A stretch of 20,000 nt of DNA from an uncultured virus (IMG/VR IMGVR_UViG_3300027416_000239) (Duplodnaviria; Heunggongvirae; Uroviricota; Caudoviricetes), in the IMG/VR virus record IMGVR_UViG_3300027416_000239. One strand, written 5' to 3'. How positions within the stretch are numbered: the first letter of the stretch is position 1; each line of letters opens with the position of its first letter. Below, piece after piece: positions 2,920-20,000 of this stretch. The notes below the pieces were generated by a model. That model saw only the letters and a list, made by a program, of their open reading frames with translations. It searched no databases and was not told where the DNA came from. A program made the position numbers and the translations under genes.

Positions 2920-2933
2920 GAACTATCTTTAAG

Positions 2934-2942: not shown

Positions 2943-2958
2943 AACTTACTACCTATTG

Positions 2959-3606: not shown

Positions 3607-3607
3607 G

Positions 3608-4171
3608 TTACCAGATTCTTATATTACGTATGATTGTTGTACCTGTACCTGTACATGCTCTACCTATCTGAGGTCCTGCTTTTGATCCGTTAACGTTTCT
3701 TCTTCTTTGTATGAAGAAAGTTTTTGGGTTATTGGTATTGAAGCTTCCGTGGTAAAAGTTATTGGAGTTGTTATCACAAGCGGAAGTTTTTGCATGAGAT
3801 TGAAATGCTGGTATTTCCCAGCTATTAAGCGGACGGCTGATTCTATCTCCGGCACTCTCATCGTAGGTTAGGAGGTTTCCTAGTGCACTCCCGGGAGCAT
3901 ACGCATTTTCGTTAAATGTCCAGCAAGCAGAATTACCTTCTAATATTAATTCGTAAGTAATGTTTGTCCACGGAATAGAGTCACTCAACTCTATGTAAAT
4001 ACCGGACGAAGAACATCCGTAACCGGTGTATGTGGTCTTTATTTGATATCCTCCATTAGGACCTACATTACCGGTCTCAGCAGTAACAATACTATCGTAG
4101 CTACCAAGAGCTACTGACCAGACTTGGTTTGATGTTACTAATGTTGATCGTATGCCGTATCCTGTTGCCAT
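3608..4171 (-). CDS. Hypothetical protein, predicted beta-rich, 4 Cys (187 aa)
   Basis: ATG start, 1-nt gaps to both neighbours. No recognised family. Confidence 0.75.
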   Translation of the reverse strand: MATGYGIRSTLVTSNQVWSVALGSYDSIVTAETGNVGPNGGYQIKTTYTGYGCSSSGIYIELSDSIPWTNITYELILEGNSACWTFNENAYAPGSALGNLLTYDESAGDRISRPLNSWEIPAFQSHAKTSACDNNSNNFYHGSFNTNNPKTFFIQRRRNVNGSKAGPQIGRACTGTGTTIIRNIRIW

Positions 4172-4172
4172 C

Positions 4173-4388
4173 TTACCATTTGCCTTCCGGGCAAGTTGAA
4201 GTTACTAAGTTCATTAAAGCTTCTCTTATACATCCACAGGCTCCACATGTTCCGTCTTCCTGTACATGCTCGCAAGACTGACATACAACCTCCCAAGTAT
4301 CTCTCTGCTCTTGAGTAGCTAAATCAGATTCTTCTATGATGTACTTCTTATACACAACTCCACCAATAATTTCTTCTTCTATTCTCAT
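4173..4388 (-). CDS. Small Cys-rich putative metal-binding protein, DUF6171-like (71 aa)
   Basis: Pattern CxxC-x8-CxxCxC-x12-CPxGKW. ATGA overlap with the upstream gene's stop codon. Confidence 0.7.
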   Translation of the reverse strand: MRIEEEIIGGVVYKKYIIEESDLATQEQRDTWEVVCQSCEHVQEDGTCGACGCIREALMNLVTSTCPEGKW

Positions 4389-5551
4389 ATTCCAAATCTT
4401 GATTTTACTGCTAAATAACTCTGCTCTACTTCCATAGGAGTAAATGCTTTATTTAGGTGAATTTTTAGTAACGGAATTTGACCTGACATTACAGAAGGGC
4501 TTGAAGGAGCTCCTCCTCGATGCTGTCCAATATACTGTGGACCTCTCCCTGCTAAATCAAATGCTGTGGTGTTGGTATTACTTGCAACGAGCTGTCCATT
4601 TAAATACACTCTCATACCGGCATTTATATCAAATACTCCAATAGCATGATGGTACCCTGTACCTACTAATCCTGTTGCACTAATTGCTCCGTTATCTGTA
4701 TATGGTGAGTTTCGTCTATGAAATAGGTATAATTGATTACTAGAATTAACGTAGAAGCTAAACCAGTGGTACTGTGCGTCTCCTATGATACCGTCTACTC
4801 TATTTGTAGAGTATCTATTAAATACTGCTTCAATGGTATAAGACTTATTAACAATATTAGCGGAACCTCCAAAGGTAATTAAATCATTACTGCCGTCAAA
4901 CTCTGGTTCTGCATTTGCATTAAAACTAACACCTGAAAGTTCAAGAGTACGGTTACCGGTCATATCCAGTAGTGCTGCTGTTGAAGCTCGAGTACCGTTT
5001 ACAAACGGAGTAGGGTGTGATTTACCAATCTCAATCTGTACATTAGAAACATCCACTGAGAATGTTCCTGTTCCGTTATCTGCCCAGACTGTAAATCCTA
5101 CTTTCTGTCCATCCCCTACTGTGCCACTCCAGCTAATACGTTCTCTAGTATTACCGTATTTAATGTTTCTCTGACTCCCTGCTGAGTAACCTAGGTATGT
5201 CTGGGTGCCGGTGGTTTGTCCAACCATTATCCAGCTAAAATCTGCTGTAGCTTCATTTGCAGATTCAAAAGTAGCAGAAATAGTTACATTTTGTCCGGTA
5301 TAGGCTGATACATCCCATAGGTAGCTTCTCCAGGCAGCACCAGGAGTTCCAGACCAGCTAGTAATAATAAACCTAAAACTTTTCTCTTCACTACTTAGTG
5401 TAGAGTAAGTTCCACCCCATCCTCCTTGAGACGGAGTGGTAGTGACGATATTAGTTGTAGGTTCTCCTTTATACGACCTGAATGTATTAGTTGCGTCGTA
5501 AAATACCTCGAGGTTATCTACTACTGCTTTTGGTGAATGATGATGAGCCAT
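4385..5551 (-). CDS. LamG-like lectin protein with an inserted CBM-like domain (388 aa)
   Basis: N-terminal VDNLEVFYDATN..SY, then an insert of about 165 aa, then LLDMTGN, FDGSNDLI, YTIEAVF, VYLNGQL and terminal EVEQSYLAVKSRFGI. Confidence 0.8.
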   Translation of the reverse strand: MAHHHSPKAVVDNLEVFYDATNTFRSYKGEPTTNIVTTTPSQGGWGGTYSTLSSEEKSFRFIITSWSGTPGAAWRSYLWDVSAYTGQNVTISATFESANEATADFSWIMVGQTTGTQTYLGYSAGSQRNIKYGNTRERISWSGTVGDGQKVGFTVWADNGTGTFSVDVSNVQIEIGKSHPTPFVNGTRASTAALLDMTGNRTLELSGVSFNANAEPEFDGSNDLITFGGSANIVNKSYTIEAVFNRYSTNRVDGIIGDAQYHWFSFYVNSSNQLYLFHRRNSPYTDNGAISATGLVGTGYHHAIGVFDINAGMRVYLNGQLVASNTNTTAFDLAGRGPQYIGQHRGGAPSSPSVMSGQIPLLKIHLNKAFTPMEVEQSYLAVKSRFGI

Positions 5552-5554
5552 AAC

Positions 5555-8500
5555 TTACTTATCTCTAACGGTTTGTAAAGGTTTAGTGTCTTTACGGGTG
5601 CCTTGTATGTAGTAGTAAGCATTGATCTTACTAGTTAGTAGGTCTCCGTTTTTAATAAATACTCTGTTATCTCTAACATCTACTACATAAAGGTTTTGAT
5701 GCTTACCAATTGAAGTTAATTGCACAGTGATGCTATCTTCATGTACTAATCCCGTCCATTCTTCCGGTAATTCGATTACGTTACCGTTAATCTTTCCTCT
5801 ACAGTACACTGCGTGTTCTGGTCCTTCTAAGACTCCGTACACAAGTTTCTTACCTGGTTGAGTAGGATGATCAATCACAAATGATTTCTCATTTGCTTCT
5901 AAGATACCGTTGATGGATAGGGTAGTACCGTCCCAAGTCAATGCCTGAGATCCTGATACTGTATCTGTATCTTTCCAGAATGCTACTTCATTGGCTACAC
6001 CAGTACCGTTTGATGATACATCAATCTCAATTACGTTACCGGATGAATCTACGGCTAGTGATTTGGTAGCAGTGCCTGTCTGAGTTCCTGAACCGTAGTT
6101 ATTAAGTCTTAAAGCACCTCCTGTTGATATCTGTGCTCTAGTACCTGCGTTAGTCTTAAGGTATAGTGGATGATTAGAATCAGTACCAATAGCTGCTAAA
6201 GAAGATTGTGCTTGAACATTAAATAATGCTCCGGATGCTCTTTGAACTTCAAGCTCACCGTTACCTGTAGAGTAGACGTGTAATTGAGCTGAAGGAGCTG
6301 TTGTACCTACACCTACGTATCCCTGAGAGCCTGAGATTACCATCACTCTAGTTCGGGTGCCGGGCGATCCTGATGGCATAGTGGCGATTTGAAGTAGGTC
6401 GTCACCCATAAAAATCTCCATACTTCTTAGAGATCCTATATCATTTCTATGTCCGCTATCGTAATAGTAGTTGGTAGACAAGTACATACCGCCTGCGAAA
6501 GCTCCTATATATGAATTTGCGGTGCTGGCACCTCCGTCAAATACTATATGGTTTGTACCGGTAGTGTTGTAAATCTGTAAACTGCCTGAGGTAGGAGTAG
6601 TGGTGCCGAGACCTACATTGCCAGTACTAGTGATGCGTACTTTTTCAGAGTTATCAACTTTAAACTGAATAACACTACTGCTATCTGTATTAGAAGCATC
6701 AGCTCCAATGGTTAAGTTACCGTTGAAAGATTCAATTCTACCAGATCCTCCTACTGTTCCTAGTTCTGTATAAGAACCAGACAGTGCATTTGTTCTCTGT
6801 ACTCTTACTGCTGCTCCGTTATCTGTAGTATTACTTACTGTTAGTAGAGCAGCTGGTGAGGTTGTGCCTATCCCTACTCTGCCTACCCCGGTAATACGCA
6901 TTCTCTCACCCATTGACGTACCGTTATTGGTGCCAAAGGCAATTACGTTTTCGGCATCTGTTCTAGATGCTAGAAGTAAAGCTCCTATTCCTGAATCAAA
7001 TGATACATTAGAGGAGTAAATACCGGCTCCTGGTAAGGAAGTAAAGTTTGCGTAGTTGCCAACAAGCGTATGCCCTTTAGTTGTCACTATTCCTGCAACT
7101 TCTAATGTAGTAGTTGGTGAAGCAGTACCGATACCTACTTTTGCACTTGTGTGGTCGTAGAAGAAGTTACTAGCTCCTCCTGTTACTGATCCGCTCTTAA
7201 ACTGTACTGATTTATCCAGTCCGGCTGGGTTGGCAGCTACACCAAATAATCCTGAACCGTCACCTACAAATGAACCAGAAGTAGTTCCTGTGGTAAATAA
7301 ATCTCCGTATACGATATGATCTGAGCCGCTTGACCAGATTTGTGAGTTCTCCAAATGGTCTCCGCCGTCTGATCTTGCTACATACCACTTAGTTAGTGTG
7401 GGTTCTTCTCCTAATGATCCTGTATTTCTAGGACCAGACATAAACATAGCTCCTGAGTATGTAGATCCACTAACGTTCTGATATACCCAGTGATCGTGTA
7501 GGGAATCCCAAGCAAAAGATGCTGTAGCATCACTTGATCCTGAGTCGTATACTCTTAAGCCTCCAAATCTCTCTATAGGTTCAAATACGTTAACGCTAAT
7601 GAAAGCAGAATCAACGTCTAATTGCGAGGAAGTAACGTGGTAGAATGATGAAGAACCGAAAACTGTTAAATCTCCAGTAATAACAACGTCTTGATTTAGC
7701 TGTCCTACGCTCTCAGCTTTCAAAGCATAAGAGGATGTTACTGCAAAGCTAGCACTATCAGCCTGGATTGCATGAGAGGATGAAACAGCTCTATCAATAG
7801 TACCAGCAAAGCTACCTGAGAAAGAGCCTGAGAGAATCATATTATTATGACGTGGTGCGAATCCTCCGTTTGCATTCTTAACTAGAACGTCATATGTTAC
7901 TGTGTTTTCTGATCCTGAGATTACGGCTATATCTCTAAGGTGTACTGGTGATTTAGGTTCTACAAAAATCAGACCATTACCGGCATTTACCTTTGTTACC
8001 CAGCCTACTCTTACTACATCATAAGGGAAAGGAGGTGGTGTGTTTCTAAACCCTGCCGATCCTGTCTGGAGGTATAGAGTATCTCCGGCAGTAAATGCTG
8101 TTGTATTTAATTTACGTACAATACCTTGTGCGGTTATGTATCCTGTAGCATTATCAGCAATATCGTTTGTAGCAACACCTATAATATGATTCTCCCTTCC
8201 AAACTGTGAGACTATGTGGTTTTCAGCTACTGCTGGCCAGATATTAGGCCTGTCTCCTGTGGAGCCTGAGATACGCACCGGTGTTCCATTTAAGATAGGG
8301 TTTCCTGACTTATTAATTGCTCTAATCCAGAACTCCTGACCTACTTGCATTGTTACATCAGCAACATCGTTATAGACTGCTAATGCTCCTTCGGTAGCAT
8401 CGTAAAATACTCTACCTGCTCGATGAGCTGGTTCTGATCCTGCTACTCGAGGTGTAAAGTCTATATGCGAGCCTGTAAAGTAGGAGGCAGTTAACGATGA

Positions 8501-10396
8501 GGCAGCAAATGAGGCAGTAGTAGCGCTATTAGCAAAGAGTGCATGAGAAGCCGAGGTGCTTGTTGCAGCGTAAGAAGCGCTCAATGCATTAACTGCATGC
8601 GAAGCACTAGTAGCTGTAAGAGCGTAAGATGCTGAAGTAGATGTAAGTGAGTAAGATGCTGTTGTTGCATTAACTGCATAGACTGCATAAGAAGCGCTAT
8701 CAATTAATCCCACAAACTGACCGTAGAACGAACCACTGAATGATCCAGACATACCGGCTAGTAGCTCTACTGTAGGTTCAATACGTAAAGTATTAGCTTT
8801 GTTAGGAGAGATGTTAACACCAATAGCGTATGCTTGGTCTAAAGCGTTAACAGCAAACTTAATTGCTCCTACTACCTGACCTGAACCTGAGCCTGCATAA
8901 ATAATTGCAGTACCGGTCCCTGGATCGTACATTCCAATGGTAGATTTAGATCCTGAATCGTCTGCAACACTGTGGGCTACGAAACCTCCGTTATTCTCTG
9001 CGTAATAGTATCCGTCTAGGATAGTAGAGACATTACCTCCGTAGGACCTACTTACAAAGAATCCTTGAGAGCCTGAGATTTGATCTGTAGAACTCCAGAT
9101 TGCTATCTCATCTGTCTGACCTCCACTATCTCTAACATAACCCGGTACATATGAAGCAGTAAGGGCATAAGAAGAGCTAGTAGCACTTGAAGCATAAGAA
9201 GCACTTACTGCATTTAATACATAAGATGCTGTTACGGCATTTTCAATTACAGCAGTAATGGAGCCACTAAAGTTACCTTTAAATGAACCTGTTAGTTCTA
9301 CGTTACCTAACTGTAGGTTGTCTGCTACTGTGATTGCAGCTTTATTATCGGTAATTGCTACGTCTATGTTCCTAGCTGAACCTGTGATAGTTAACGCATC
9401 AGTTTTGAGGTTAACTAAATCGTTACCTGTAGATCCTGATAAAGCTAATGTAGAAGCAATTCCAGTTAAGTTAGAACCGTCTCCTTTGAATGAACCTGTT
9501 AAGTTAACATTAGATAAGGTTAGATTCTGTGATACGCTAATAGCAGCTTGATTGTTTGTAACAGCTACATCTACGTTATTGACCGAGCCTGTTATCTTTA
9601 AGGCATCAGTTTTCAAGTTAACTAAATCGTTACCTGTAGATCCTGACAGAGCTAATGTAGAAGCGATTCCAGTTAAGTTAGATCCATCACCTTGGAAAGA
9701 GCCTGAGAAGGATCCTGAGAATTCAGGAGATGTGATTTTACTTGTTGCTGTTATGGAGCCTGATATGTTGATAGACCCTGTGAATGCATGGTTATCATCA
9801 GCAGAGTCACCGAATTTTGTAGATCCCGATTGGTATATAATGGAAGCAGAAACGAACTCGGTATGAAATTCCTGTGCAGTTAATGTACCGGTAATAATTG
9901 CATCACCGTCTACATGTAATTTAGCAGTTGGATTGCTTATACCAATACCTAAGTTACCACTTGAGCTAATATAATATACTTCTGCTCCTCCAAAAGCTGC
10001 TCCATCTGTAGATGAGCTGTAGAATTGAAGCTGTGTTATATCACCGCCTGGTACTCCACCTACTCCTGTTAAGCCTGAGCCATCACCTTGGAATGAACCA
10101 CTGAATGAACCAGAGAATGGAAGTACTTTCCATGTAAGGCTAGCTGGTGTTGATACTACGCTAGGAGGTGGACCTGGGTCAAATGTTTGAGATGCAGCAA
10201 CCTTAGTGGCAATGTAAAACAGTTTTTCATCTTGTAGATACGCAATCTGCCCATCTTTTGCTCTTTCAAAAGGAATAGCAGCCATAGAAGCAGAATCAGC
10301 AACTGTAATCCAGCCACCTCTAATCTGCTCTATATACCCGAATGGATCATTAGTATCCCCCGGTCTAATATATACGTCACTAACTGTAATTGCCAT
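5555..10396 (-). CDS. Mosaic fibre protein (1613 aa) with SGSF, SASYA and VGIGT repeats, an internal beta-tulip-like domain and a C-terminal KSFVIDHP domain
   Basis: Long ORF with repeated SGSFSGSF, A.SASYA runs and five (V/L)G(I/L/V)G(T/I)xxP motifs. Ends in KSFVIDHP..PGKKLVYGVLEGPE, a domain I recognise from phage fibre C-termini. Confidence 0.85.
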   Translation of the reverse strand: MAITVSDVYIRPGDTNDPFGYIEQIRGGWITVADSASMAAIPFERAKDGQIAYLQDEKLFYIATKVAASQTFDPGPPPSVVSTPASLTWKVLPFSGSFSGSFQGDGSGLTGVGGVPGGDITQLQFYSSSTDGAAFGGAEVYYISSSGNLGIGISNPTAKLHVDGDAIITGTLTAQEFHTEFVSASIIYQSGSTKFGDSADDNHAFTGSINISGSITATSKITSPEFSGSFSGSFQGDGSNLTGIASTLALSGSTGNDLVNLKTDALKITGSVNNVDVAVTNNQAAISVSQNLTLSNVNLTGSFKGDGSNLTGIASTLALSGSTGNDLVNLKTDALTITGSARNIDVAITDNKAAITVADNLQLGNVELTGSFKGNFSGSITAVIENAVTASYVLNAVSASYASSATSSSYALTASYVPGYVRDSGGQTDEIAIWSSTDQISGSQGFFVSRSYGGNVSTILDGYYYAENNGGFVAHSVADDSGSKSTIGMYDPGTGTAIIYAGSGSGQVVGAIKFAVNALDQAYAIGVNISPNKANTLRIEPTVELLAGMSGSFSGSFYGQFVGLIDSASYAVYAVNATTASYSLTSTSASYALTATSASHAVNALSASYAATSTSASHALFANSATTASFAASSLTASYFTGSHIDFTPRVAGSEPAHRAGRVFYDATEGALAVYNDVADVTMQVGQEFWIRAINKSGNPILNGTPVRISGSTGDRPNIWPAVAENHIVSQFGRENHIIGVATNDIADNATGYITAQGIVRKLNTTAFTAGDTLYLQTGSAGFRNTPPPFPYDVVRVGWVTKVNAGNGLIFVEPKSPVHLRDIAVISGSENTVTYDVLVKNANGGFAPRHNNMILSGSFSGSFAGTIDRAVSSSHAIQADSASFAVTSSYALKAESVGQLNQDVVITGDLTVFGSSSFYHVTSSQLDVDSAFISVNVFEPIERFGGLRVYDSGSSDATASFAWDSLHDHWVYQNVSGSTYSGAMFMSGPRNTGSLGEEPTLTKWYVARSDGGDHLENSQIWSSGSDHIVYGDLFTTGTTSGSFVGDGSGLFGVAANPAGLDKSVQFKSGSVTGGASNFFYDHTSAKVGIGTASPTTTLEVAGIVTTKGHTLVGNYANFTSLPGAGIYSSNVSFDSGIGALLLASRTDAENVIAFGTNNGTSMGERMRITGVGRVGIGTTSPAALLTVSNTTDNGAAVRVQRTNALSGSYTELGTVGGSGRIESFNGNLTIGADASNTDSSSVIQFKVDNSEKVRITSTGNVGLGTTTPTSGSLQIYNTTGTNHIVFDGGASTANSYIGAFAGGMYLSTNYYYDSGHRNDIGSLRSMEIFMGDDLLQIATMPSGSPGTRTRVMVISGSQGYVGVGTTAPSAQLHVYSTGNGELEVQRASGALFNVQAQSSLAAIGTDSNHPLYLKTNAGTRAQISTGGALRLNNYGSGTQTGTATKSLAVDSSGNVIEIDVSSNGTGVANEVAFWKDTDTVSGSQALTWDGTTLSINGILEANEKSFVIDHPTQPGKKLVYGVLEGPEHAVYCRGKINGNVIELPEEWTGLVHEDSITVQLTSIGKHQNLYVVDVRDNRVFIKNGDLLTSKINAYYYIQGTRKDTKPLQTVRDK
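8480..8702 (-). repeat. Low-complexity ~9-residue (S/T)AS(Y/H/F)A repeat tract
   Basis: SASYAVYAVNATTASYSLTSTSASYALTATSASHAVNALSASYAATSTSASHA...; a shorter tract lies at about 9150-9240. Confidence 0.8.
9275..9703 (-). repeat. Tandem 207-bp (69-aa) intragenic duplication
   Basis: GDGSNLTGIASTLALSGSTGNDLVNLKTDAL occurs twice. The identical 30-mer gttaactaaatcgttacctgtagatcctga is at 9410-9439 and 9617-9646. Confidence 0.95.
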
Positions 10397-10410
10397 ATCT
10401 TATAAATTGT

Positions 10411-13400
10411 TTAAGGTAGTGTATCCCCGCTTGCTGCGATTGTCCATTCATTAGTACCAGTTGCTCCAGTTAAACCGTAAACAACACCCCATTCCGTATG
10501 TCCGTCTACTGCTACATCTGTAGTAAAATATAACACTCCGGCTGTTGTTACAGCAGGTGGTGTGGTTGCATAAGTGATTAATGCATGCTGTCCTGCAGGC
10601 ATAGTACTGAAGTCTGATCCTAAGTACATTGTGTTAGGTAAGCTTGGGAGTGCAGAAGAAGATGGGAATAGGAATAGAGGTTGGCTACCGGCTGCATCTT
10701 GTGTTATAGTTCCTAATGTCTTAATTTCTAATAGGTCTGCTACAGTACCGTCTGTTTTCGGTGTTGCTGTACCTTGCCCCGATACTGTGATTGGATCTCC
10801 GATATTACCAGCAATCCATTCAGCTAACGGATAGTCCGGGTTCGCATAGTCGTACTGTTCGTAGAATTGAGCTCCGATAGCTGCAAGTGCTTGCGCCTCT
10901 GTATTATCGAGGTTAGATCTATTAATTGTATTAATATAGATGTAGACTGGTGTTGTTCCTGTACTTTGCACGGTAACTGTTTTAGTTTCTGTTGTTGTTT
11001 TATTGAAACTATCTCTAGCAGTAAGTTCTACTTCATAGCTTCCAGCTCCTAATCCTGCTCCATCTACATTAATATTATAGGTCTTAGTGTAAGATGTAGC
11101 TCCTGTCTGTACTAATGCAAAACTGCCAGAGTTAGCTCCTCCTGTTATAGTAATAGATAGGATTGAATCAAGAGATTGTGGGTCTGTGGCTGTTACTGTA
11201 CCTACAGTATTTCCTACGTTTGCCGATCCTGATACTACTGATAAACCTGTGTAAGATAAGGTAGGAGCTGCATTAGCAGTAACTTGAACTGGTACCAGTA
11301 CTTCAGAAGATACCCCGTAAGCGTTGGTAGCTACAACGTACTCCTGAATTAAGTTATAAGGAGCACCTGAGGCGTTCTTAGCAGAACCGCTGATATTAGC
11401 TTTAACTGATAATCCTCCATTACTATCGATGGCTAAGTACGTACTAGGTGATTTAATACTCCAGGTTACATCTTGGTTAGTATTCATATCGGCTTGTACT
11501 CCGGTATATCCGTCACTATTAACTACCACCTGAGAGGCGCTGAGTGCACTTTCAATAATATAGAAGTTAACGGCATTTTTAATAGGTACGTCCGGTGCTG
11601 CTAAAGTAATATTAACTGGGATTGGAGTAACTGTTGTAAGTCCGAATGAATCTGTAGCAGAACCTGTTAGGTTATAAGATCCTGATGTTAGATTCTGTGT
11701 TGTATGTACTGCATACAGTGCTGTGGTGGCTGTAGAGCTTGCTAGTGAAGCAGAAAACTTACTAGCATCAGTACCGGATAATGTGAAGGATACAATGCTA
11801 TCATCTTGAGGATCAGCGATTGAAGCAGATCCGATTACTTCATTGTTTTCAGCATCAGATACATCCTTAGTAAAACCTGTTAAGCTAACTGTAGGAGGTA
11901 GGTTTTCAGCTACTGCAATAGTAAATGCTGCTTTAGCAATTTGATTGTAAGCATCACTACCGGTAACACTAAATGAGTAGCTTCCGCTGTTTAATGCTGC
12001 AGAAGAGGAAACTGTATACACTCTGGTAGAGCCTGCAGTTCCTGCTGAGAATGTAAAGCTACCTACGTCTGGTCCGTTAAAGTCTGTTAACGAAACGTTG
12101 CCCAGAGATTGCGGATCAGAAATTGTGATGGTTCCAAAGCCTGTAGCTGTAGTAGTTTTATTATTATTTTTACCTGCTAAAGTATTCGTAATAACAGGAT
12201 CTAAATCATCTACTACTGCCACACTAAAGGGAAGAGATCTAGAAGCACCAAAGGTGTTAGTTGCTACTACTTCATCGGTAATTGTATTACCAGCCTGCTT
12301 GGCAGAGCCGCTGATGTGTACTTTAGCTGATAACTTACCGTTAGAATCAATAGCTAAATATGTTCCATTTGTTAAGCTCCATGTTACAGCTTGGTTTGTT
12401 GTAAACTGTGCTTGTGTGCCTGAGAATCCGGTGGTACTATTGTATACAAAAGCGCCACTTACAGCACTTTCGATGATGTAAAATGGATCGTTTGAGTCAG
12501 GAATAGAAGGAGCCTGTACTGTAGCTGTTACCGGGATAGGTTTAATTGTTGTGAATCCAAATCCATCTACAGCTGATCCTGTTAGATTATATGTACCTGA
12601 TGTTAGGCTTTCTGCAGTCTTGATAAGATATACGTACTCGTTTCCAACCTGTCCGTTAGGTACAGCATCAAATTTAGCAGCATCAGTACCGGTAAAGTTG
12701 AAGGATGCGATGCCGTCTATTCCGCTATCTCCATCGTTAACTTGTACGTAACCTAACGTAGATCCAGAAACTGCTTGAGCAATGTCCGGTTGATAGGATG
12801 TAACTGTGGAGGATCCACTATATAGTCCAATGACTGGAGGATTATTAGCAAAGACCGATACTGTAAAGCTTTGAGAGGTAAATTGTCCGTAAGAGTCGCT
12901 AGCTGTAACTCCTACTATATAGCTTCCGCTATTTAAAGCTTGAGAAGAAGAGAATGGATACAGTACACTCTGTCCTGCTGACTGGCTTACGAATATAAAT
13001 TTATCCCCATCGGGGCCGCCAATACCTACAAGTTGTACGTTTTCAATTGATTGAGGATCAAAAACTAAGATGTTTCCAAAGCCTGCTGCTCCATCTTTAG
13101 TGTAGTAGTTGTTAAGGAAGCTTAAATTCGGAGAGATCGATGCTCCAACGTTATCTGTTATAGTTACACTTATATTATTCTCTTTATAGAGACCGTAGGT
13201 GTTAGTAGCTCTTACTACTCCTGAGAGTACGCTACCATTTTGGTAGGCTGAGCCACTTAGATTATCTTTTAGAGTAATGTACCCAACTGCACTACCTGAG
13301 ATTGCTAGCTTTCCACTTAAGTCATCTGATAAGGACCAGCTAACGGGCTGGTTAGTAGTCATTGTGGCTACTGTTCCTGCAATTCCGCTTGTTGCTGTAG

Positions 13401-16400
13401 TTACACTAGCTCCAGTTAATGCACTTTCTATAACATAGAATGTACCGTTAGGAGAAGGCAGTGAAGGAGTAGTAGCAGATAGTGTGTTAGGAATTGCTAA
13501 AGATCCTGTGAATGCAAAATTATCTGTTGCAGAAGCTGTAATATTGTATGTACCTGTAAATGGAGGTGTTGTATTAAAGTTAACAGCCCACTTCTCATTA
13601 CCTGTTCCTGATCCTTGACCTCTAGCACTCAGTCCTCCCATATTGGAAGATATTCTATTTACTGCAAAGTAACTGGCATCAGGTCCTGACAGAGTAAATG
13701 TATCAATAGCATCACCAGCGTTATCTGTTACAGTAATACTGCCGTAGATAGACCCTGATGAGTAGTTTTGTATCTGCCCACTAAATGGTAAGAACACTGT
13801 TAAGACTGGTGCTGTGTTAGCATCAATTACTAATGTAGAAGAGGCTGATGCTTCGTTGCCGTATAGGTCACTGCCGGTAAAGTTTAGTACGTAGCTTCCA
13901 CTGTTTAGAGCTTGAGTAGTATAGATCTTGTAGTAACTTACTCCTGCAAGTTGATTATACAGAGAAGAAGAGAAGAAAGAAGGATTAGTTCCCCCAAATG
14001 TATGAATAGTAGGAGGTCCTGCAGGATCTGCTTGTTCGTTAATGTAAACTTCTCCAATATAAGCACCAGAAGCAGTAACAAAGCTAGCTGCTTTTGGGGA
14101 ATAGTTAGTTATATCTGATGTACTAATGGTTGGACCTGTATTGTCAAGTACGGTTACTGTAAAGTCTCTTGTCTTATATCCTCCAGAAGTAGCATTTGCT
14201 GTTACTGTACCTGAAATAACTTTAGGTGCTTGGTATGTAGCACTACCGCTAAGATTAATCTTAATAAAGAGCTTACCTGTTAGAGGTTCAATATCTAATA
14301 CTGAGTTAGTCTGTATGGACCATGTTACTGACGTATTAGCTGTAAATGATGCTGATTCAAATACATTGTAGTAGTTACCTACGGGAGTATTAGTTGTAGT
14401 AGCTCCTCTAACATGAGAACCGCTTAATTCACTTTCTAAGATATAGAAAGGTTCGTTAGTTAAGATCTCAATACCAAAGCCTGGATCTGGGTAGAATACC
14501 TGCTCAAGGAATTGAGAGACTGTGGTAGTACCTGGATTATAGTTAACTAAGGTAGGAAGTAAAGGTTGTGTGATTGGCCTATCTCCGTCAAAGGTACTAG
14601 GTGTTGCTGAAGAGGATAGGCTTGCTAAAGAAGCAGAAATAGACCCCCAATCGTCAATATACGAATCTGTTGAATCTAGGTTACCCAGTACATTAAGAGA
14701 CCCGGTGAAGGTATGTGTATCATCAACAGTGTCACCGAATTTTGTTGAACCGGATTCGTATATCACTGCAGCGGTTACATACTCTGTATGAAATTCCTGC
14801 GCTGTTATAGTTCCTCCTACAGTTAGGTTACCGGTAAACTCTCCCGAACCGTTGATACGTAGAGCAGAAGCTGTAATAGCTGTGCTTGTAGAGTTTCCGT
14901 TTACAGTAACTTGCTGTAAGTTTAATGTAGAGCTGGCTGCACCAATATCTGATAGTACTTGAGCTCCTGTTCTGTAAAGTACATCACCTGTACTGCCGTG
15001 TACTAGAAATTTATCTGTATCAAGTCCGCTCTGCAGTACGTTACTCAGTCTTAAGTCAGATCCACTGATGGTTCCTACCTGTATACTGTTAGTGGTGATA
15101 CTGCCGTTATCTGTTACAGAATCTAGTGTAGGATCTCCAGAGCCAATTGCACCGATATCCGAGCGTACTTGAGCTCCTGTTCTATACTTTACACTACCTG
15201 TAGTATCTATTACTAAAAACTTGTCAGGATCGGTACCGTAGTTATCTACAACGTTAATGCTTAGTCTACTTCCTACAAAAAAGTTACTACTTACTAGCCC
15301 CTGTCCTTGTATTGAAAGTGTTGAACCTGTGATAGGTCCTACGGACATACCTAGCGCAGAGGTGTTACCTGAGGATAGTACCTGTGCTAGAGTAGGAACT
15401 GCGATCTGTGCTCCAATATCAGAAGCTAACTGTGCTCCTGTTCTATATTCAACAGTACCTCCGTTAGATACTAAGAATTTATCTGTGTCTACTGTAGCGT
15501 TTGTAATTGTTCCAATGCTAAGATCTTGACCTACAGAAACACTGCCTGTAACGTTAAAGGAATTTTCTCCAAAAGTTATTATTCTAGTTGGGGATGCTCC
15601 TGAGTTACTGTCAAACCATATACTGAAAATACCTCCGTCTGGGTCGATAATTCTTAATGATTGACCGCCTACTTCTAGGTAGGGATCTCCTGTAAGATTT
15701 AAAGACTGTATCTTAACAGGGTAATCACTGTTAGCTGCTACATGTAGAGTATTAGTTGGAGAGCTTGTTCCAATACCGATGCTCGAACCTGTGATTGTAT
15801 TACCAATAGCAGCTGCTTGTTCTAGTGATATACCGCTTGATGCATCTTGAATAGTAGATAAAGAAGCTGATATCGATCCCCAGTCGTTAATGTATGCGTC
15901 TGAAGATGATATGGTTTCTGTTACAGTTACTGATCCTGTGAATGCATGAGTATCGTCTGAAGTATCGCCAAATTTAGTAGAGCCAGACTGATAAATAATT
16001 GATGCACTTACAAATTCTGTATGAAACTCCTTAGCTGTTACTATTCCTTGTACTGTAAGGTCCTGTCTTACTAAAAATGCATCAGCAGACGATGCTGTCG
16101 CAGCATAAGATGCGCTTAATGTATTTTGAGCAAATGATGCACTTATAGAAGATGTAACACTAGTGATAATAATATCAAATGTAGTGCCGTCTCCTTGAGT
16201 AAACGTAATAGTATCGTTGTTTACAGAGCCTGTGATCATAAAGCTACCGGTATCCAGACTTAATGCTGCTGCAATAGAAGCAGATACGTTTGTAATACCT
16301 TCAATAGCAAGGCTTCCGCTAATTATAACATCCTGAGATCCGGAGAAAAAGGCAACCGGTTCTCCTTCAACGTAGAGAACGACTTGCCCGTACTCTGTAC

Positions 16401-16446
16401 GGTTAAGGTTGTTAGGATGTAAACCTATGTACGTTTTATTGCTCAT
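10411..16446 (-). CDS. Giant fibre/adhesin (2011 aa): fibre-repeat N-terminal third, cadherin/Ig-like array, unique C-terminal domain
   Basis: Long S/T/G-rich ORF with no signal peptide. Repeats of about 100 aa with DN.xP.I / N.xP.(L/I/V) linkers and VGTVTATDP, YEVELTARD motifs. Confidence 0.85.
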   Translation of the reverse strand: MSNKTYIGLHPNNLNRTEYGQVVLYVEGEPVAFFSGSQDVIISGSLAIEGITNVSASIAAALSLDTGSFMITGSVNNDTITFTQGDGTTFDIIITSVTSSISASFAQNTLSASYAATASSADAFLVRQDLTVQGIVTAKEFHTEFVSASIIYQSGSTKFGDTSDDTHAFTGSVTVTETISSSDAYINDWGSISASLSTIQDASSGISLEQAAAIGNTITGSSIGIGTSSPTNTLHVAANSDYPVKIQSLNLTGDPYLEVGGQSLRIIDPDGGIFSIWFDSNSGASPTRIITFGENSFNVTGSVSVGQDLSIGTITNATVDTDKFLVSNGGTVEYRTGAQLASDIGAQIAVPTLAQVLSSGNTSALGMSVGPITGSTLSIQGQGLVSSNFFVGSRLSINVVDNYGTDPDKFLVIDTTGSVKYRTGAQVRSDIGAIGSGDPTLDSVTDNGSITTNSIQVGTISGSDLRLSNVLQSGLDTDKFLVHGSTGDVLYRTGAQVLSDIGAASSTLNLQQVTVNGNSTSTAITASALRINGSGEFTGNLTVGGTITAQEFHTEYVTAAVIYESGSTKFGDTVDDTHTFTGSLNVLGNLDSTDSYIDDWGSISASLASLSSSATPSTFDGDRPITQPLLPTLVNYNPGTTTVSQFLEQVFYPDPGFGIEILTNEPFYILESELSGSHVRGATTTNTPVGNYYNVFESASFTANTSVTWSIQTNSVLDIEPLTGKLFIKINLSGSATYQAPKVISGTVTANATSGGYKTRDFTVTVLDNTGPTISTSDITNYSPKAASFVTASGAYIGEVYINEQADPAGPPTIHTFGGTNPSFFSSSLYNQLAGVSYYKIYTTQALNSGSYVLNFTGSDLYGNEASASSTLVIDANTAPVLTVFLPFSGQIQNYSSGSIYGSITVTDNAGDAIDTFTLSGPDASYFAVNRISSNMGGLSARGQGSGTGNEKWAVNFNTTPPFTGTYNITASATDNFAFTGSLAIPNTLSATTPSLPSPNGTFYVIESALTGASVTTATSGIAGTVATMTTNQPVSWSLSDDLSGKLAISGSAVGYITLKDNLSGSAYQNGSVLSGVVRATNTYGLYKENNISVTITDNVGASISPNLSFLNNYYTKDGAAGFGNILVFDPQSIENVQLVGIGGPDGDKFIFVSQSAGQSVLYPFSSSQALNSGSYIVGVTASDSYGQFTSQSFTVSVFANNPPVIGLYSGSSTVTSYQPDIAQAVSGSTLGYVQVNDGDSGIDGIASFNFTGTDAAKFDAVPNGQVGNEYVYLIKTAESLTSGTYNLTGSAVDGFGFTTIKPIPVTATVQAPSIPDSNDPFYIIESAVSGAFVYNSTTGFSGTQAQFTTNQAVTWSLTNGTYLAIDSNGKLSAKVHISGSAKQAGNTITDEVVATNTFGASRSLPFSVAVVDDLDPVITNTLAGKNNNKTTTATGFGTITISDPQSLGNVSLTDFNGPDVGSFTFSAGTAGSTRVYTVSSSAALNSGSYSFSVTGSDAYNQIAKAAFTIAVAENLPPTVSLTGFTKDVSDAENNEVIGSASIADPQDDSIVSFTLSGTDASKFSASLASSTATTALYAVHTTQNLTSGSYNLTGSATDSFGLTTVTPIPVNITLAAPDVPIKNAVNFYIIESALSASQVVVNSDGYTGVQADMNTNQDVTWSIKSPSTYLAIDSNGGLSVKANISGSAKNASGAPYNLIQEYVVATNAYGVSSEVLVPVQVTANAAPTLSYTGLSVVSGSANVGNTVGTVTATDPQSLDSILSITITGGANSGSFALVQTGATSYTKTYNINVDGAGLGAGSYEVELTARDSFNKTTTETKTVTVQSTGTTPVYIYINTINRSNLDNTEAQALAAIGAQFYEQYDYANPDYPLAEWIAGNIGDPITVSGQGTATPKTDGTVADLLEIKTLGTITQDAAGSQPLFLFPSSSALPSLPNTMYLGSDFSTMPAGQHALITYATTPPAVTTAGVLYFTTDVAVDGHTEWGVVYGLTGATGTNEWTIAASGDTLP
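10960..14460 (-). repeat. Higher-order array of cadherin-like domains (three 3-domain units plus a partial fourth)
   Basis: FY(I/V)(L/I)ES anchors at 14431-14448, 13423-13440, 12466-12483 and 11548-11565, with spacings of 336, 319 and 306 aa. Confidence 0.8.
14880..15490 (-). repeat. Three copies of DxDKFLV..G.V.YRTGAQ..SDIGA, each followed by an L..V...G(N/S) motif
   Basis: Copies at about 15410-15490, 15148-15231 and 14938-15021. Confidence 0.9.
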
Positions 16447-16451
16447 CTATC

Positions 16452-16781
16452 TTAGGTTGTTTCCATCATTGATATAACTACATCTGCTGAAGAAGATACG
16501 TTAGAAGCCACTTGTAAAACATCTGTAGTTTCTAGTACTACTTTTTGATCTCCTCCTACAACAACTAAACTTCCTCCTGCTGCAATAATACCGTCTTTAA
16601 GTAAGTATGCGGTAACACCTGCAGAAGTATCTACTACCTCAGCATCTACTGTGATAGTAGCTGCAGTACGGTTAGCAATTGCCATACCGATTACAGTTGT
16701 AGTTGTAGAAGCAGGAACAGTATAACCTTCGGCTACTGGACCTATTGCTGCTATTACTTTGTTTTTGAATGTGTTTGCCAT
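16452..16781 (-). CDS. Small phage structural / fibre adaptor-like protein, MANTFKN type (109 aa)
   Basis: MANTFKNK..YTVPASTTTTVIG..IAN..KVVLETTD pattern, which I recall from aquatic phage structural regions. 1-nt gap to the upstream gene. Confidence 0.75.
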   Translation of the reverse strand: MANTFKNKVIAAIGPVAEGYTVPASTTTTVIGMAIANRTAATITVDAEVVDTSAGVTAYLLKDGIIAAGGSLVVVGGDQKVVLETTDVLQVASNVSSSADVVISMMETT

Positions 16782-16782
16782 C

Positions 16783-18615
16783 TTATCCTAATGCTATTGC
16801 CATAGCTACTGCAAAATCTAATACTTCCTCTCCTTTAGAGTATATAGAATCTTGTACGTTTAAGCTACTGCTGATTGATACGTGATTTGTTGTCTGGTTT
16901 CCATTGTCAGTTACTTCCTGTAACGTTAGTGCATTTGCAGTTACGGTACTGCCGCTTATTGCTGCTAAAGAAGCAGAAACGTCTGGGAAGCCTGTGATAT
17001 TTAAGTTGGAAGCTGATACTACTAAGGTAGTACTGTTTCCATTATCTGTGATATCCTGTAATGTAAAATTATATGCTGCTGAAGCTGTTGCAGATACGAG
17101 AGTTAACTCGCTTGCAAAGCTCGCTGAAGTACCGTATAGGTCTGCTAGAGAAGCAGATACATCAGGAAATCCTGTAATATTTAAATTAGAAGCACTAATT
17201 ACTAAAGTAGTAGAGTTTCCTTTATCTGTGATGTTCTGCAGGTTGTAGTTTCCTAAACTAGCTAAAGAAGCAGATACATCTGGAAAGTCTGTAATGTTTA
17301 AATTAGAAGCACTAATTACTAAAGTAGTAGAGTTTCCATTAGTAGTTACCTGCTGTAACGTTTGACCGGATGCACTAGTAGAGATACTAGAGAGAGAAGC
17401 AGATATTGATCCCCAGTCGTTAATTGTAACGTCATCTGATTTGGTGTTTCCGTCAACAGTTACAGAACCTGTAAATTGATGTATATCATCTGCTGTATCA
17501 CCGAATTTTGTTGAACCGGAAGAGTATACTATTGAAGCAGAAACAAACGTTGTATGAAATTCTCTCGCTGTTACAGTACCATTTACATTTAGATCTCCTC
17601 TTACTAGAAAATCGTCAGCTGAAGAAGCTGTTGCTGCATTTTCTGCCCAGCTAGAAGTACCTTCTAAATTACCGGTGAACGATCCTGTAAATGATCCTGA
17701 TGCGGTAGTGTTAATTAAGGTTAAATCGCTAAGGCTTTCGTAAATACCTGATAGTTGTAAGTACGAGCTACCTACGGTCATAAACGGACTCTGTAGGTGT
17801 GCAGATAAGTAGAAGCTCTGACCTATCTCATTAAACTCTAAATTAATACCTGATGAGGTATAAGTATCCACGATTATAATTGAATCGTGTACTGCTTTCC
17901 TAAATTCATACGAAGCTGAATCGATTCCAACAGTTGCGTTGGACGTACCATCAAAAGTAAACGGCAGTATACCCGGTCCTGCTGAAGCAGAGGTTGATAA
18001 GGTACCGGTAAGGTCTCCTACAAATGATCCTGAGAAGGATCCGGTAGATTTTGTATTCTCGAGATTAAAGTTTGTTACTGAAGCAGCAGAGTTACCAAGT
18101 TGTATAGAGGTAGAACCCAGCTGTATGTCTGAGTAGAGAAGTGAACCGCTAAGTACTCCTGTGGTTGAGTTATAAGATAAATCTATACCTCCTGCTCCAG
18201 TTGTATCTTGAGCTATAATATTCGGTGGGGTAGTACCGATTAAGTCGACTACAGCGTTAACAAAATGATTCGATCCTGTATCTAAGCTAATAATAGCATC
18301 GGCAGACCCGTTGTACGTAAAGGCTAGCATACCGTCACCAGCAGATGCAGAGTAATCTAATACTACTCCTCTAAGCCCTTCAGCTGATCCTGAGAAGGAT
18401 CCAGTAAATGATGTTGCTTCTACGCTACCTAGTAAAGTGATTGATCCGGTGATGGTTGTATTGGCTCCCAATAACGGAATAATAGTGTCGTCATCCTTAC
18501 GGATGTACACTAAGCCGTCGGCTGTATTTATCGCGATCTCACCAGTCTGCAGAGTGGCCGTGGTTGGCACTCTTCCTGGAACGGAGGATCGCTTCAGTCT
18601 TAATGTTTGAGCCAT
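16783..18615 (-). CDS. Fibre protein with Mtd_N-like N-terminus and AMAIALG C-terminus (610 aa)
   Basis: Starts LRLKRSSVPGRVP...L..GEIAINTADGLVY, resembling major tropism determinant N-terminal-like domains. Contains SGSF and LQxVTDNGNxTT repeats and ends FAVAMAIALG. Confidence 0.8.
   Translation of the reverse strand: MAQTLRLKRSSVPGRVPTTATLQTGEIAINTADGLVYIRKDDDTIIPLLGANTTITGSITLLGSVEATSFTGSFSGSAEGLRGVVLDYSASAGDGMLAFTYNGSADAIISLDTGSNHFVNAVVDLIGTTPPNIIAQDTTGAGGIDLSYNSTTGVLSGSLLYSDIQLGSTSIQLGNSAASVTNFNLENTKSTGSFSGSFVGDLTGTLSTSASAGPGILPFTFDGTSNATVGIDSASYEFRKAVHDSIIIVDTYTSSGINLEFNEIGQSFYLSAHLQSPFMTVGSSYLQLSGIYESLSDLTLINTTASGSFTGSFTGNLEGTSSWAENAATASSADDFLVRGDLNVNGTVTAREFHTTFVSASIVYSSGSTKFGDTADDIHQFTGSVTVDGNTKSDDVTINDWGSISASLSSISTSASGQTLQQVTTNGNSTTLVISASNLNITDFPDVSASLASLGNYNLQNITDKGNSTTLVISASNLNITGFPDVSASLADLYGTSASFASELTLVSATASAAYNFTLQDITDNGNSTTLVVSASNLNITGFPDVSASLAAISGSTVTANALTLQEVTDNGNQTTNHVSISSSLNVQDSIYSKGEEVLDFAVAMAIALG
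16885..17365 (-). repeat. Four LQx(V/I)TxxGNxTT units, three extended by LV(I/V)SASNLNITxFPDVSASLA
   Basis: An identical 41-mer at 17180-17220 and 17297-17337 (117-bp period), with a third diverged copy at about 16965-17060. Confidence 0.95.
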
Positions 18616-18635
18616 ATGTATGGTAACGTTTTGAA

Positions 18636-18664
18636 GGTATATACCGGGTTGCCCTATATAGGAC
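18636..18664. promoter_or_regulatory. Twin 10-bp palindromes GGTATATACC and CCTATATAGG in the putative 5' leader
   Basis: Perfect palindromes at 18636-18645 and 18653-18662, both with a TATATA core. Function inferred only. Confidence 0.5.
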
Positions 18665-18666
18665 TA

Positions 18667-18702
18667 TAATAAATAGGAAAGCCGGCGATAAGCCGGCTCC
18701 TA
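18667..18702 (-). terminator. Probable intrinsic terminator
   Basis: Minus strand reads TAGG-AGCCGGC-TTATC-GCCGGCT-TTCCTATTTATT: a 7-bp GC-rich stem (18680-18698) followed by an interrupted U-rich tail, about 20 nt after the stop of the 85-aa gene. Confidence 0.65.
18669..18676 (-). promoter_or_regulatory. Candidate late promoter motif CTATTTAT
   Basis: Same 8-mer as 2935-2942, 53 nt upstream of the ATG at 18615. Confidence 0.45.
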
Positions 18703-18720
18703 ACCTTATATGTATTTTAA

Positions 18721-18978
18721 TTAAAAGTCATCTGTACCGAGATCGATGGTCTCTCTTGATCCAGTATCTGCAAGAGTGCCGAGGCCTTGAATCGAAAGTG
18801 AACCAGAAACAGCTTGTGCTGCTAGAGTAGATTTAACAATCTCCATGGCTCCTGATACTATTAATGCTGCTATTGTACTATCGGTCTGATAGAATACAGA
18901 TTGACCAGCTACGCTAAAGCTACCTGTGATATTTAGCGAACCAGAAGGGTTTAGTTGTGATAGGTGAACTCGTGCCAT
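18721..18978 (-). CDS. Small fibre-like / linker protein (85 aa)
   Basis: ATG 1 nt after the upstream TAA. Shares SGS/ITGS motifs with the fibres and ends TIDLGTDDF. Confidence 0.75.
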   Translation of the reverse strand: MARVHLSQLNPSGSLNITGSFSVAGQSVFYQTDSTIAALIVSGAMEIVKSTLAAQAVSGSLSIQGLGTLADTGSRETIDLGTDDF

Positions 18979-18979
18979 A

Positions 18980-20000
18980 TTATGTAAACTTACCTGCTAA
19001 TATAACTTCAAAGTCCGGTAGCATTTCGTACTGAATTGCGTTGGTATCAAAGAGTACTTCAATATTAGCTCCTACTTGAGATGTTGTTCTCTGAGTAGAT
19101 GGGATTAAGATACCGTTAACGTATACCTGGAAGCTTGATTCATCGATAGTAAAGCCTGAAGGTGCTGTGGCAATAGTACGGTTGTTAAACGTAGCTTTAT
19201 TACTGATGACTGTATCCGCTATAGCTGTTGTGTTCAAGCTAATAAATGTAATCTCTGCTCCTGTCATACCTCCTGTTCCTGGTGGTGGTTGGAATGCACC
19301 AATCTGACTGTCAAAGAATCTAGCCGGAGCTGCTTCTTGAGGTGTTCTAGATGCTGCTGTTAACGTTTCTAAATCTCCTACAGTCTCGAATCCAAAGTTA
19401 ACCTGAGCCTTAGAGTAGAATTTCTTAAGGTTAGCTTTATCGCGGTTGTAAGTATCTGTGATAATATACCCGTGGAGCACTAAGCTAAATGTAGCCTTTA
19501 CTGCTCTATCACTTCCTTGAGCCATCTCAATGGTAGGAGTATAGGAATCAATTCTAGCTCTAAAGCGGTAGCGTTCTTTATCCCCCCAGTATGAATCAGA
19601 AGCAAAGTTTAATGCTTCAATTAGCTTGTCACATTGCTCTACATAATCGGTATAGATAATACATTGGTAGGTTACTGTAACGTAATCTGGTATTACAACT
19701 CCGTAGAGTTCTTTGGATGGTTGACGATTAGAAATTAAGGAAAATCTATCGTAGATGTTTCTCTTGGAATACTTCTTTTCGTAAATAACAAAGTTACTAA
19801 CTTCGTTACCGTCTAGCTTATTACCTAATGATCTATTCTTCTCAATGTTACTTTTACGGAACATGATTAACGGCACTTGAAGCTTACCGTCTTTGTCTCT
19901 ATAGAAGCCGTCTTTTTGCACAGCTGCCCATCTTTCTGGTGATCCGTAGAGAATTGGTACGTCAAGCTTACTACCATTCTGTACAACTGATGGCTTAATT
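18980..20000 (-). CDS. T4 gp15-like tail terminator / sheath stabiliser with C-terminal extension, 5'-truncated
   Basis: The frame stays open past the track's GTG at 19921 to the window end (IKPSVVQNGSKLDVPILYGSPERWAAV). VPILYGSPERW and PDYVTVTYQCIIYTDYVEQCDKLIE match the gp15-family pattern. Confidence 0.65.
   Translation of the reverse strand, partial: IKPSVVQNGSKLDVPILYGSPERWAAVQKDGFYRDKDGKLQVPLIMFRKSNIEKNRSLGNKLDGNEVSNFVIYEKKYSKRNIYDRFSLISNRQPSKELYGVVIPDYVTVTYQCIIYTDYVEQCDKLIEALNFASDSYWGDKERYRFRARIDSYTPTIEMAQGSDRAVKATFSLVLHGYIITDTYNRDKANLKKFYSKAQVNFGFETVGDLETLTAASRTPQEAAPARFFDSQIGAFQPPPGTGGMTGAEITFISLNTTAIADTVISNKATFNNRTIATAPSGFTIDESSFQVYVNGILIPSTQRTTSQVGANIEVLFDTNAIQYEMLPDFEVILAGKFT

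Follow-up and report, generated by a model that had tools for sequence, protein, structure and literature searches.

The DNA analysed here (the window) is a 20,000-nucleotide (nt) stretch from an uncultured virus (IMG/VR record IMGVR_UViG_3300027416_000239), the minus strand of which is occupied by eleven co-oriented genes. The first six of these, A to F, encode in order a protein with a tail-terminator fold, a small fibre-like protein, a fibre, a 109-amino-acid (aa) protein and two further fibres (Table 1), and the region is best read as the module that encodes the tail fibres of a large aquatic myovirus. Our subject is the run of genes B, C, D and E, and above all the small protein D. The initial annotation of this DNA had described the fibre genes as a possible daisy chain, in which gene order mirrors the docking of C-terminal peptides on the N-terminal domain of the next protein; the terminal strings that it quoted for A to F were all found on the minus strand where it had placed them. 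Here we argue for a shorter chain, from B to E, that would be held together by two kinds of joint.

Table 1 Genes and features of the window (positions count from the first nucleotide of the window; terminal strings are those of the predicted proteins)
Feature	Position	Strand	Description
A	18980-19999, open at window edge	-	full length 411 aa, taken from locus L012 (99% identical)
A core (residues 73-261)	19433-19999	-	gp15-like tail terminator fold
A extra C-terminal beta domain (residues about 320-411)	18983-19258	-	ends FEVILAGKFT; predicted local distance difference test (pLDDT) about 85-94
B	18721-18978	-	85 aa, MARVHLSQL...IDLGTDDF; small fibre-like adaptor
B C-terminal peptide	18724-18747	-	ends ETIDLGTDDF
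Terminator-like hairpin	18678-18700	-	stem of 9 pairs (6 of them G-C) with a T-rich tail, in the 105 nt that separate B and C
C	16783-18615	-	610 aa, MAQTLRLKRS...AVAMAIALG
C head (residues 1-60)	18436-18615	-	MAQTLRLKRS..GEIAINTADG..; gp37-type N-terminal domain, proposed socket
C C-terminal plug	16786-16815	-	ends FAVAMAIALG; I-A-L-G invariant
D	16452-16781	-	109 aa, MANTFKN...; single jelly-roll (predicted model), proposed coupler
E	10411-16446	-	2011 aa, MSNKTYIGLHP...; fibre-like N-terminal third, four Ig-like repeats, unique C-terminal domain of about 180 aa
E N-terminal plug	16414-16446	-	MSNKTYIGLHP; M, Y, G, P invariant
F	5555-10396	-	1613 aa; GGWITV..AIPFERAKDGQIAYL near the N terminus, KSFVIDHP about 110 aa from the C terminus
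F N-terminal domain	10067-10396	-	own domain
F C-terminal domain	5576-5905	-	function unknown
G	4385-5551	-	LamG-type
H	4173-4388	-	71-aa Cys-rich DUF6171/phrog_13558 protein
I		-	187 aa
J	2959-3606	-	LamG-type
K		-	>973 aa

D lies between two conserved protein ends. A scan for its relatives matched at least 599 stretches, with at least 564 viral stretches confirmed, and the best 80 loci were kept; these are the closest relatives of the D of the window (51–99% identity) rather than a random sample, with many near-duplicates. Distinct sequences in them number 61 for D, 61 for the upstream protein and 59 for the downstream N terminus. The open reading frame (ORF) directly upstream of D ends in I[AV][LF]G(G) in 78 of the 80 loci, and in the remaining two (L058 and L061) an ORF with the end ALAIALG is separated from D by an inserted Cys-rich ORF of 144 aa. 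Downstream, the ORF starts with M-x(1-4)-[YF]-x-G in 79 of the 79 loci that have one. Among 3731 background ORFs (at least 60 aa, both strands, from 160 loci made up of this set and of the set selected with the head of C, described below), the AIALG-type tail occurs 84 times and the strict head 79 times, so that both motifs, the regular expressions for which were written after inspection of the data, are essentially confined to D junctions. The adjacency of AMAIALG, MANTFK and M.YIGxxP, which the initial annotation had named as recurrent in aquatic phages, does recur in these loci.

What is conserved lies at the very ends: across 41 aligned tails nothing but IALG is invariant, and across 35 aligned heads nothing but M, Y, G and P. 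The rest of each fibre varies freely, with lengths of 66–747 aa for the upstream proteins, which have at least eight unrelated types of N-terminal anchor, and of 171 to more than 3328 aa for the downstream proteins. The same triad was present in all nine isolates examined (of 23 phage records with a match), in podoviruses and myoviruses alike and with D identities of 33–60%. These isolates are the podovirus-type Pelagibacter phages HTVC106P, HTVC026P and HTVC203P and Roseobacter phages CRP-9 and CRP-143 (Autographiviridae), and the myovirus-type Rhizobium phage RHph_Y65, Ochrobactrum jumbo phage vB_OspM_OC, Methylophilales phage Melnitz-3 and Yersinia phage YerA41; HTVC203P has the variant tail AIAL and CRP-143 the variant head MAYTG. 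Four of the loci chosen for the head of C also have AIALG-like tails (L122, L165, L169 and L196), each followed by D or by a 117–124-aa distant relative of D (hhalign probability 85%, E value 6e-6), and where the locus continues the next protein has SY[IV]G near its start.

Mosaic fibre genes typically have conserved boundaries beside highly variable bodies, and the motifs and D might therefore form an island that is passed on in one piece, by inheritance or by recombination, with the motifs serving as linkers for swaps of fibre modules and each fibre attaching singly. D was not found in the 100%-complete 173-kb relative G002, which has A, B and LKRS-headed fibres (controls G006–G008 match with E values of about 1e-46), and from this absence in a close relative we take it that the D cassette moves between lineages, as a block. 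Such an island without docking seems to us improbable, however. Conservation of D as a protein extends to relatives of only 33% identity and includes invariant residues, and the peptides occupy the extreme ends of their proteins, boundaries that a DNA linker need not respect. The upstream proteins of 66–77 aa are barely more than an anchor motif and an AIALG tail, which fits an adaptor and not an independent fibre, and the T4 gp36/gp37 precedent, discussed below, is a physical joint.

Other features were seen at junctions of this kind. The ORF inserted in L058 and L061 (..CKTCSEEK..HCIECRKEY..) looks by eye like a small homing-endonuclease-type gene. In L013–L053 and L094 (CRP-9 gp45/gp44), M.YIG proteins often end in WYGFTAGQAL[AG] and are followed by MATKKK[LM]LQAAAG.., a third junction that does not occur in the window. 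Melnitz-3 gene 173 (L203 4349–4984) encodes a 211-aa protein with both a MAYIG head and an ALAIALG tail, followed by D and then by an MPYLG protein; such a link would be chainable in principle, yet there is only one D in the region.

The predicted model of D (pLDDT 95.6, predicted template modelling score 0.85) is a single jelly-roll of nine strands. Its nearest structural neighbours by VIA are the turret of Haloferax tailed virus 1 (HFTV1; Z 10.2) and the trimeric cement protein of KHP40 (Z 9.5), followed by Bacillus Ena pilus subunits (Z 9.2), nucleoplasmin cores and TNF/C1q trimers (Z 7.3–7.7); because these values lie in a common range, the matches indicate the class of fold and not kinship. 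Foldseek returned generic jelly-rolls only (satellite tobacco mosaic virus, Ena and infectious bursal disease virus, E about 1e-4). Searches of PDB sequences with D, with a D profile, with A and with the profile of C heads gave best E values of 0.15–0.8, all to unrelated proteins, and D had no Pfam match at E≤10, no match to a known chaperone family, and PHROG matches (phrog_26609 and phrog_1276) only to families of function not known. The invariant residues of D include its own N terminus, M-A-N-T-F-K, and a G-G-D-Q-K-V-V-L-E stretch. D is probably a trimer.

At E≤1e-3 the D family comprises 2535 representative clusters, of which 944 remain at E≤1e-10. Among the best 150 clusters, 144 are stand-alone proteins of 84–126 aa; the other six are longer, with D followed by other domains (P0005, P0264 and P0203), D at the C-terminal end (P0207) or D in tandem, giving two jelly-roll copies per chain (P0193, 307 aa, and P0195, 225 aa). 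Natural fusions of D to C-terminal tip-like domains occur in P0004–P0006 and P0264, and in P0004 the domain that follows D is a BclA_C-type Pfam domain. Most members are named ‘hypothetical protein’; those of isolates are called ‘virion structural protein’ and once ‘C1q globular head like’, names that rest on annotation only. Three further chains were set aside as evidence of fusion, as the glutamine at the junction may be a stop codon read as glutamine: P0002 and P0003 run from an LKRS head through an AIALG tail and ‘QQ’ into D, and in P0001 D is followed by ‘Q’ and a fibre. The glutamines of P0001–P0003 lie exactly at the expected stops, and these chains may be products of such a reading or true fusions.

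The junction between B and C resembles a joint that is already known. A tblastn search with the first 60 aa of C found gp37 N termini in 793 phage records; T4-like proteins named ‘long tail fiber protein distal subunit’ match residues 3–60 at 34–37% identity (E 1e-4 to 9e-3), and phrog_1699, of the same name, matches residues 8–74 (E 8e-6). The initial annotation had called this head Mtd_N-like. Mtd_N was not recovered in a Pfam scan of C (E≤0.01), a profile of eight heads matched no PDB chain at E≤1, and the head is homologous to T4-type gp37 N termini; a relation to Mtd_N, if there is one, would be distant. The same eight-head profile yielded 80 loci, which again are the closest relatives and no random sample, with many near-duplicates (a query with the whole of C had given only two). 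In 66 of the 77 that have an upstream ORF, that ORF ends in [ILVM][DE][GC]G[TSV][FY](S), a pattern likewise defined after inspection of the data and represented by 38 different tails; the 11 exceptions comprise two B-type tails, five that end in IEELKSK and four others. Tails of this DGGTF type number 68 among 3573 ORFs of the same loci, and 66 of these are the junction ORFs themselves, so the second adjacency named in the initial annotation, an IDGGxF-like end before an (I/L)xLKRS start, also holds.

B itself was found in 19 related loci, and a gp37-type head comes next in 14 of the 16 with enough downstream DNA; L112 and L113 have a different start after B. It has no Pfam or PHROG match. In close relatives the order is A, B (ending DLGGFY), a first fibre (MAQKILLRRG...SVIDGGTF) and a second fibre (MAQ.IKLKRS...). 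In T4_ev240, gp36 ends in VIKDSVQDFGYY (final DSVQDFGYY) immediately before gp37, which starts ..QFKRSKTAG..GELAINLKD; the likeness of the B tail to such gp36-like C termini was judged by eye. The distal half-fibre of T4 is formed by trimers of gp36 and gp37 (PMC6957217), and the B–C joint is of this known kind, mirroring the passage from gp36 to gp37. Within C, a 117-nt tandem repeat (17144–17362, 1.9 copies, 84% match) encodes a repeated NGNSTTLVISASNLNITGFPDVSASLA unit.

Upstream of B lies protein A, which holds as a gp15-like tail terminator by fold. Residues 55–261 of its model superpose on T4 gp15 (3j2m_A) with VIA Z 13.0 and a root-mean-square deviation (rmsd) of 4.3 over 154 aligned residues, and more than 30 further tail terminators rank next (Z 8–11); Foldseek gave E values of 6e-7 to 7e-6 (9mkb_AB, the T4 portal-neck-tail complex, at 6e-7; 4huh; 4hud). 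The model, built from alignment A3, has a mean pLDDT of 63, and its terminator part is only moderate (about 60–80). No sequence profile supports the assignment, as A has no Pfam match at E≤10 other than a weak one of its extra domain to DUF4183 (E 0.01), no PHROG match and no meaningful match to a PDB sequence. The ‘gp15-like extra domain’ of the initial annotation, the start of which (19270) coincides with that of the extra domain of A, thus stands as far as the fold of the core is concerned and finds no counterpart in Pfam.

The extra domain of A is best matched by residues 153–224 of chain U of the cyanophage A4 portal-tail structure (Z 7.5, rmsd 1.8, 67 aligned) and by residues 187–250 of CBA120 TSP4 (Z 5.5). 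The head-binding domain of the A4 fibre is XD2-like, XD2 being a conserved motif that attaches fibres and spikes to the tail (PMC12002296); chain U of 9k09 may be the A4 fibre gp24. A homologue of A stands directly upstream of B in 19 of 19 related loci, all of them close relatives. Gene order and this modest match of folds suggest that the XD2-like domain of A may be the proximal anchor of the chain, which would place the chain at the neck. The A family is abundant: with a query from L012 (6513–7748), 5415 proteins matched at E≤1e-3 among 8000 candidates scored, and as the family is so abundant the phage group of A must be common in the sampled environments; the members inspected have neither a name nor a Pfam domain.

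In the arrangement that we favour, B, C, D and E would form a linear assembly with joints of two kinds, encoded in the termini of adjacent genes. At the first, B would dock on the gp37-type head of C through its C-terminal peptide, IDLGTDDF-COOH, which diverges from the common DGG[TS]F-COOH. At the second, D would hold both the end of C (about 10 residues) and the start of E (about 11 residues) and would couple a virion-anchored stalk to an exchangeable distal fibre. The whole may be anchored through the XD2-like extra domain of the tail terminator A, at the neck. Because the motif pairs occur at these junctions far above background and in many unrelated fibre contexts, plug-and-socket docking is suggested both from B to C and from C through D to E. 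A chain of B, C, D and E through two joints, with the other fibres separate, is the best explanation of the region as a whole, and we give it somewhat better than even credence.

Several observations weigh against this chain. For the first joint, BLASTP found no similarity between B and gp36 of T4_ev240 (E 2.1), and B and C are parted by the terminator-like hairpin, in a gap of 103–108 nt that recurs among relatives. The DGGTF-tailed proteins start with a paralogous LKRS-like head of their own (..IKIKRS..GELAYS..KLFIG), which would also suit an island of undocked fibres, and the DGGTF/LKRS pair could be two independently anchored paralogues that are inherited together. For the second joint, a second M.Y[IL]G-headed protein without a preceding D occurs in some phages, such as RHph_Y65 (EVB97_348) and Melnitz (gene 173), so that this head may also bind something other than D. 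The predicted complex of three copies of D with three copies of the last 45 aa of C scored 0.41 (runs 0.38, 0.41 and 0.42; best of three controls 0.10), with at least 91% agreement of contacts between runs and a partner pLDDT of at least 75; this is weak support by the calibration of the tool itself, in which 116 of 157 solved complexes, but also 2 of 215 mismatched pairs, reach the mark; at scores of 0.60 or below, 18 of the 157 do so, as do both of the passing mismatches. The prediction used alignments made for this analysis and not those of the tool, its 3+3 layout of chains differs from the calibration set, and its output named no interface. What the data show directly are the motifs and the statistics of their adjacency, the folds of A and D and the homology of the head of C to gp37; all physical contacts, the oligomeric state of D and the anchor are inferred.

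Two of the adverse points bear on one alternative in particular. Small genes just behind fibre genes often encode chaperones, and D, which is small and comes right after a fibre gene, could be a fibre-assembly chaperone that recognises the AIALG tail or the M.YIG head, co-evolves with its client and then leaves. The virion proteome of YerA41, the one such proteome consulted, is the other point. Liquid chromatography–tandem mass spectrometry identified 63 proteins (PMC7354516, Table S2); among these hits, as the table reads when taken from its PDF (in which columns may be off), are the M.YLG fibre (gene 042), gene 043, the tail-fibre assembly protein (044) and gene 045, and neither the 104-aa homologue of D (041) nor the 135-aa AIALG protein (040) appears. 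D is poor in Lys and Arg, so tryptic detection may fail; as it stands, the missing D of YerA41 speaks against a place for D in the virion and favours a chaperone, and the ‘virion structural protein’ names of D relatives, being annotation only and given to a minority, do not offset it.

We nevertheless regard a departing chaperone as unlikely. No chaperone family in Pfam or PHROGs matches D, and its jelly-roll resembles knob, cement and turret proteins of virions. The occurrence of D as an N-terminal domain before tip-like C termini, and in tandem, would be odd for a protein that is released. A chaperone would leave unexplained why both neighbours keep conserved peptides while their bodies vary freely, and the AIALG protein of podoviruses stands at the position of the main tail fibre but has no tip domain.

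The chain would end at E. The repeats of E, of about 310–335 aa, start at residues 667, 1003, 1322 and 1628, with Pfam matches to Big_3_3 (30.2 bits) and Cadherin (29.2 bits) that are both just above cut-off, and its unique C-terminal domain looks tip-like, as expected of a distal end. F has PHROG matches to phrog_17490 (E 1e-30) and to phrog_9942 (tail fibre), and its C-terminal domain falls only in unnamed viral clusters. F is probably a separate appendage. A scan with its first 100 aa gave six loci, all spurious (unrelated proteins of 229–292 aa), and among five virus records its N-terminal domain matched G001 itself, with further matches that were marginal (E 0.003–0.005) and none beyond marginal in G002–G005.

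A single appendage, very long or branched, in which the proteins from A through F and beyond are linked in the order of their genes, is what the initial annotation had proposed in full. All of these genes are co-oriented and tightly spaced, the order of A, B and C is kept in relatives, and C, E and F have in common a module of 52–96 aa at 60–67% identity (C 336–431, E 124–219 and 539–601, F 162–218), with the sequence ..EFHT.FVSASI.Y.SGSTKFGD..DD.H.FTGS... This module, present twice in E, suggests on its sequence a recent exchange or a common knot domain. The adjacency of E and F does not recur beyond the spurious and marginal matches, however, E ends in its tip-like domain, and the N termini of F, G, K, a 561-aa protein and a giant protein (>3821 aa) that follow downstream differ (K and the giant share MADIRIIP..), which fits parallel attachment. 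A single appendage through all of these genes is accordingly very improbable in our estimate, and F, K and the giant fibres downstream are most likely separate, parallel appendages. Of the daisy chain, docking from B to C and from C through D to E is thus retained, on adjacency, conserved termini, D fusions and the weak complex score, and the step from E to F, like the single appendage, finds no support.

Positions 1–16123 of the window are identical (100%) to positions 16123–1 of virus record G001, in which K extends to about 2869 aa and is followed by the 561-aa fibre and then by the giant protein. By eye, the ends of these last two (L010 6825–8510, and from L010 8537 into L011) look like an endosialidase-type self-cleaving C-terminal chaperone (..SDRRVK..GVIAQE..). 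H sits amid the LamG-type proteins G and J, right after G, the stop of which it overlaps by 4 nt. Upstream of A, L012 encodes a scaffold-like acidic protein, a 535-aa protein at the position of a capsid gene, PhoH and then proteins of 380, 105, 162 and 89 aa. Flavobacterium phage immuto, a 160-kb myovirus, is the only isolate with similarity at the DNA level, and the match is limited to gene A (69.7%).

If D is a coupler, the gene after it could be taken, in thousands of aquatic phages that have not been cultured, to encode a receptor-binding protein that can be exchanged. This would cover pelagiphages, roseophages and methylophages, the fibre genes of which are almost all annotated as ‘hypothetical’, and would explain how distal modules are exchanged between podoviruses and myoviruses, as only a peptide of about 10 residues would have to match. 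The data also show that the T4 gp36/gp37 joint is widespread and recognisable by terminal motifs alone. The AIALG and M.YIG peptides with D would offer a concrete peptide–domain pair for structural work on a family that, large as it is, has no name in the sources found and no solved relative by sequence. A bolder version, to which we give little weight, is that D is a portable, near-universal jelly-roll coupler of about 110 aa in thousands of podovirus- and myovirus-type lineages, and that here C, D and E, more than 2700 residues together, extend on the gp36/gp37-type joint through B from the XD2-like domain as a giant whisker borne by the neck and not as a baseplate fibre.

The first joint is of a known kind; the second, with its jelly-roll coupler, we did not find described in the literature searched, and it would be a variant of multi-protein fibre assembly. 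Searches that covered journals outside subscription gave no description of an AIALG–D–M.YIG joint, none of the papers listed in a search for the motif strings was about phages, and the available text of the vB_OspM_OC and Melnitz papers does not mention the small D protein. Among described systems, the chain-like fibres of the podophages A1002, GP4 and VP1 are alike in that a carrier holds a row of small subunits by beta-sheet augmentation, and unlike in that these subunits are dimers of 140–171-aa proteins set side by side on a ‘rope’ protein and not trimeric fibres joined by terminal peptides (PMC13730344), with no homology seen to the proteins here. The branched receptor-binding proteins (RBPs) of Klebsiella podophages share a short, conserved terminal docking peptide, of RBP2 on the branching domain of RBP1 (products of neighbouring genes), and modular exchange (PMC13352976, PMC6872550); as set apart by description and not by sequence, they have no small coupler, use other motifs and branch from a primary spike. 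The XD2 domains of CBA120 TSP4 and of the head-binding domain of cyanopodophage A4 gp24 resemble the extra domain of A to the modest degree given above, and they sit on fibres there and on the tail terminator here.

Another close parallel is the long tail fibre of T4, built from a gp34 trimer, a gp35 monomer as hinge, a gp36 trimer and a gp37 trimer, with genes 34, 35, 36 and 37 in the order of assembly (PMC6957217). The two systems differ in that B has no detectable similarity to gp36 and there is no homologue of gp34 or gp35 here; gp35 (371 aa in T4_ev240) and the 109-aa jelly-roll D are unrelated in size and sequence, and the protein ends of T4_ev240 that were inspected lack the AIALG and M.YIG peptides. 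In T4 it is gp34 that binds the baseplate, whereas here the genes of the chain come after that of the tail terminator. They are alike in their end-to-end proteins, small connector in the middle and gene order that equals physical order (PMC6957217), the contacts here being only proposed. They are alike, too, at the sequence level, in that the head of C is homologous to the N terminus of gp37 and the DFGYY end of gp36 resembles the ends of B and of the DGGTF-tailed proteins.

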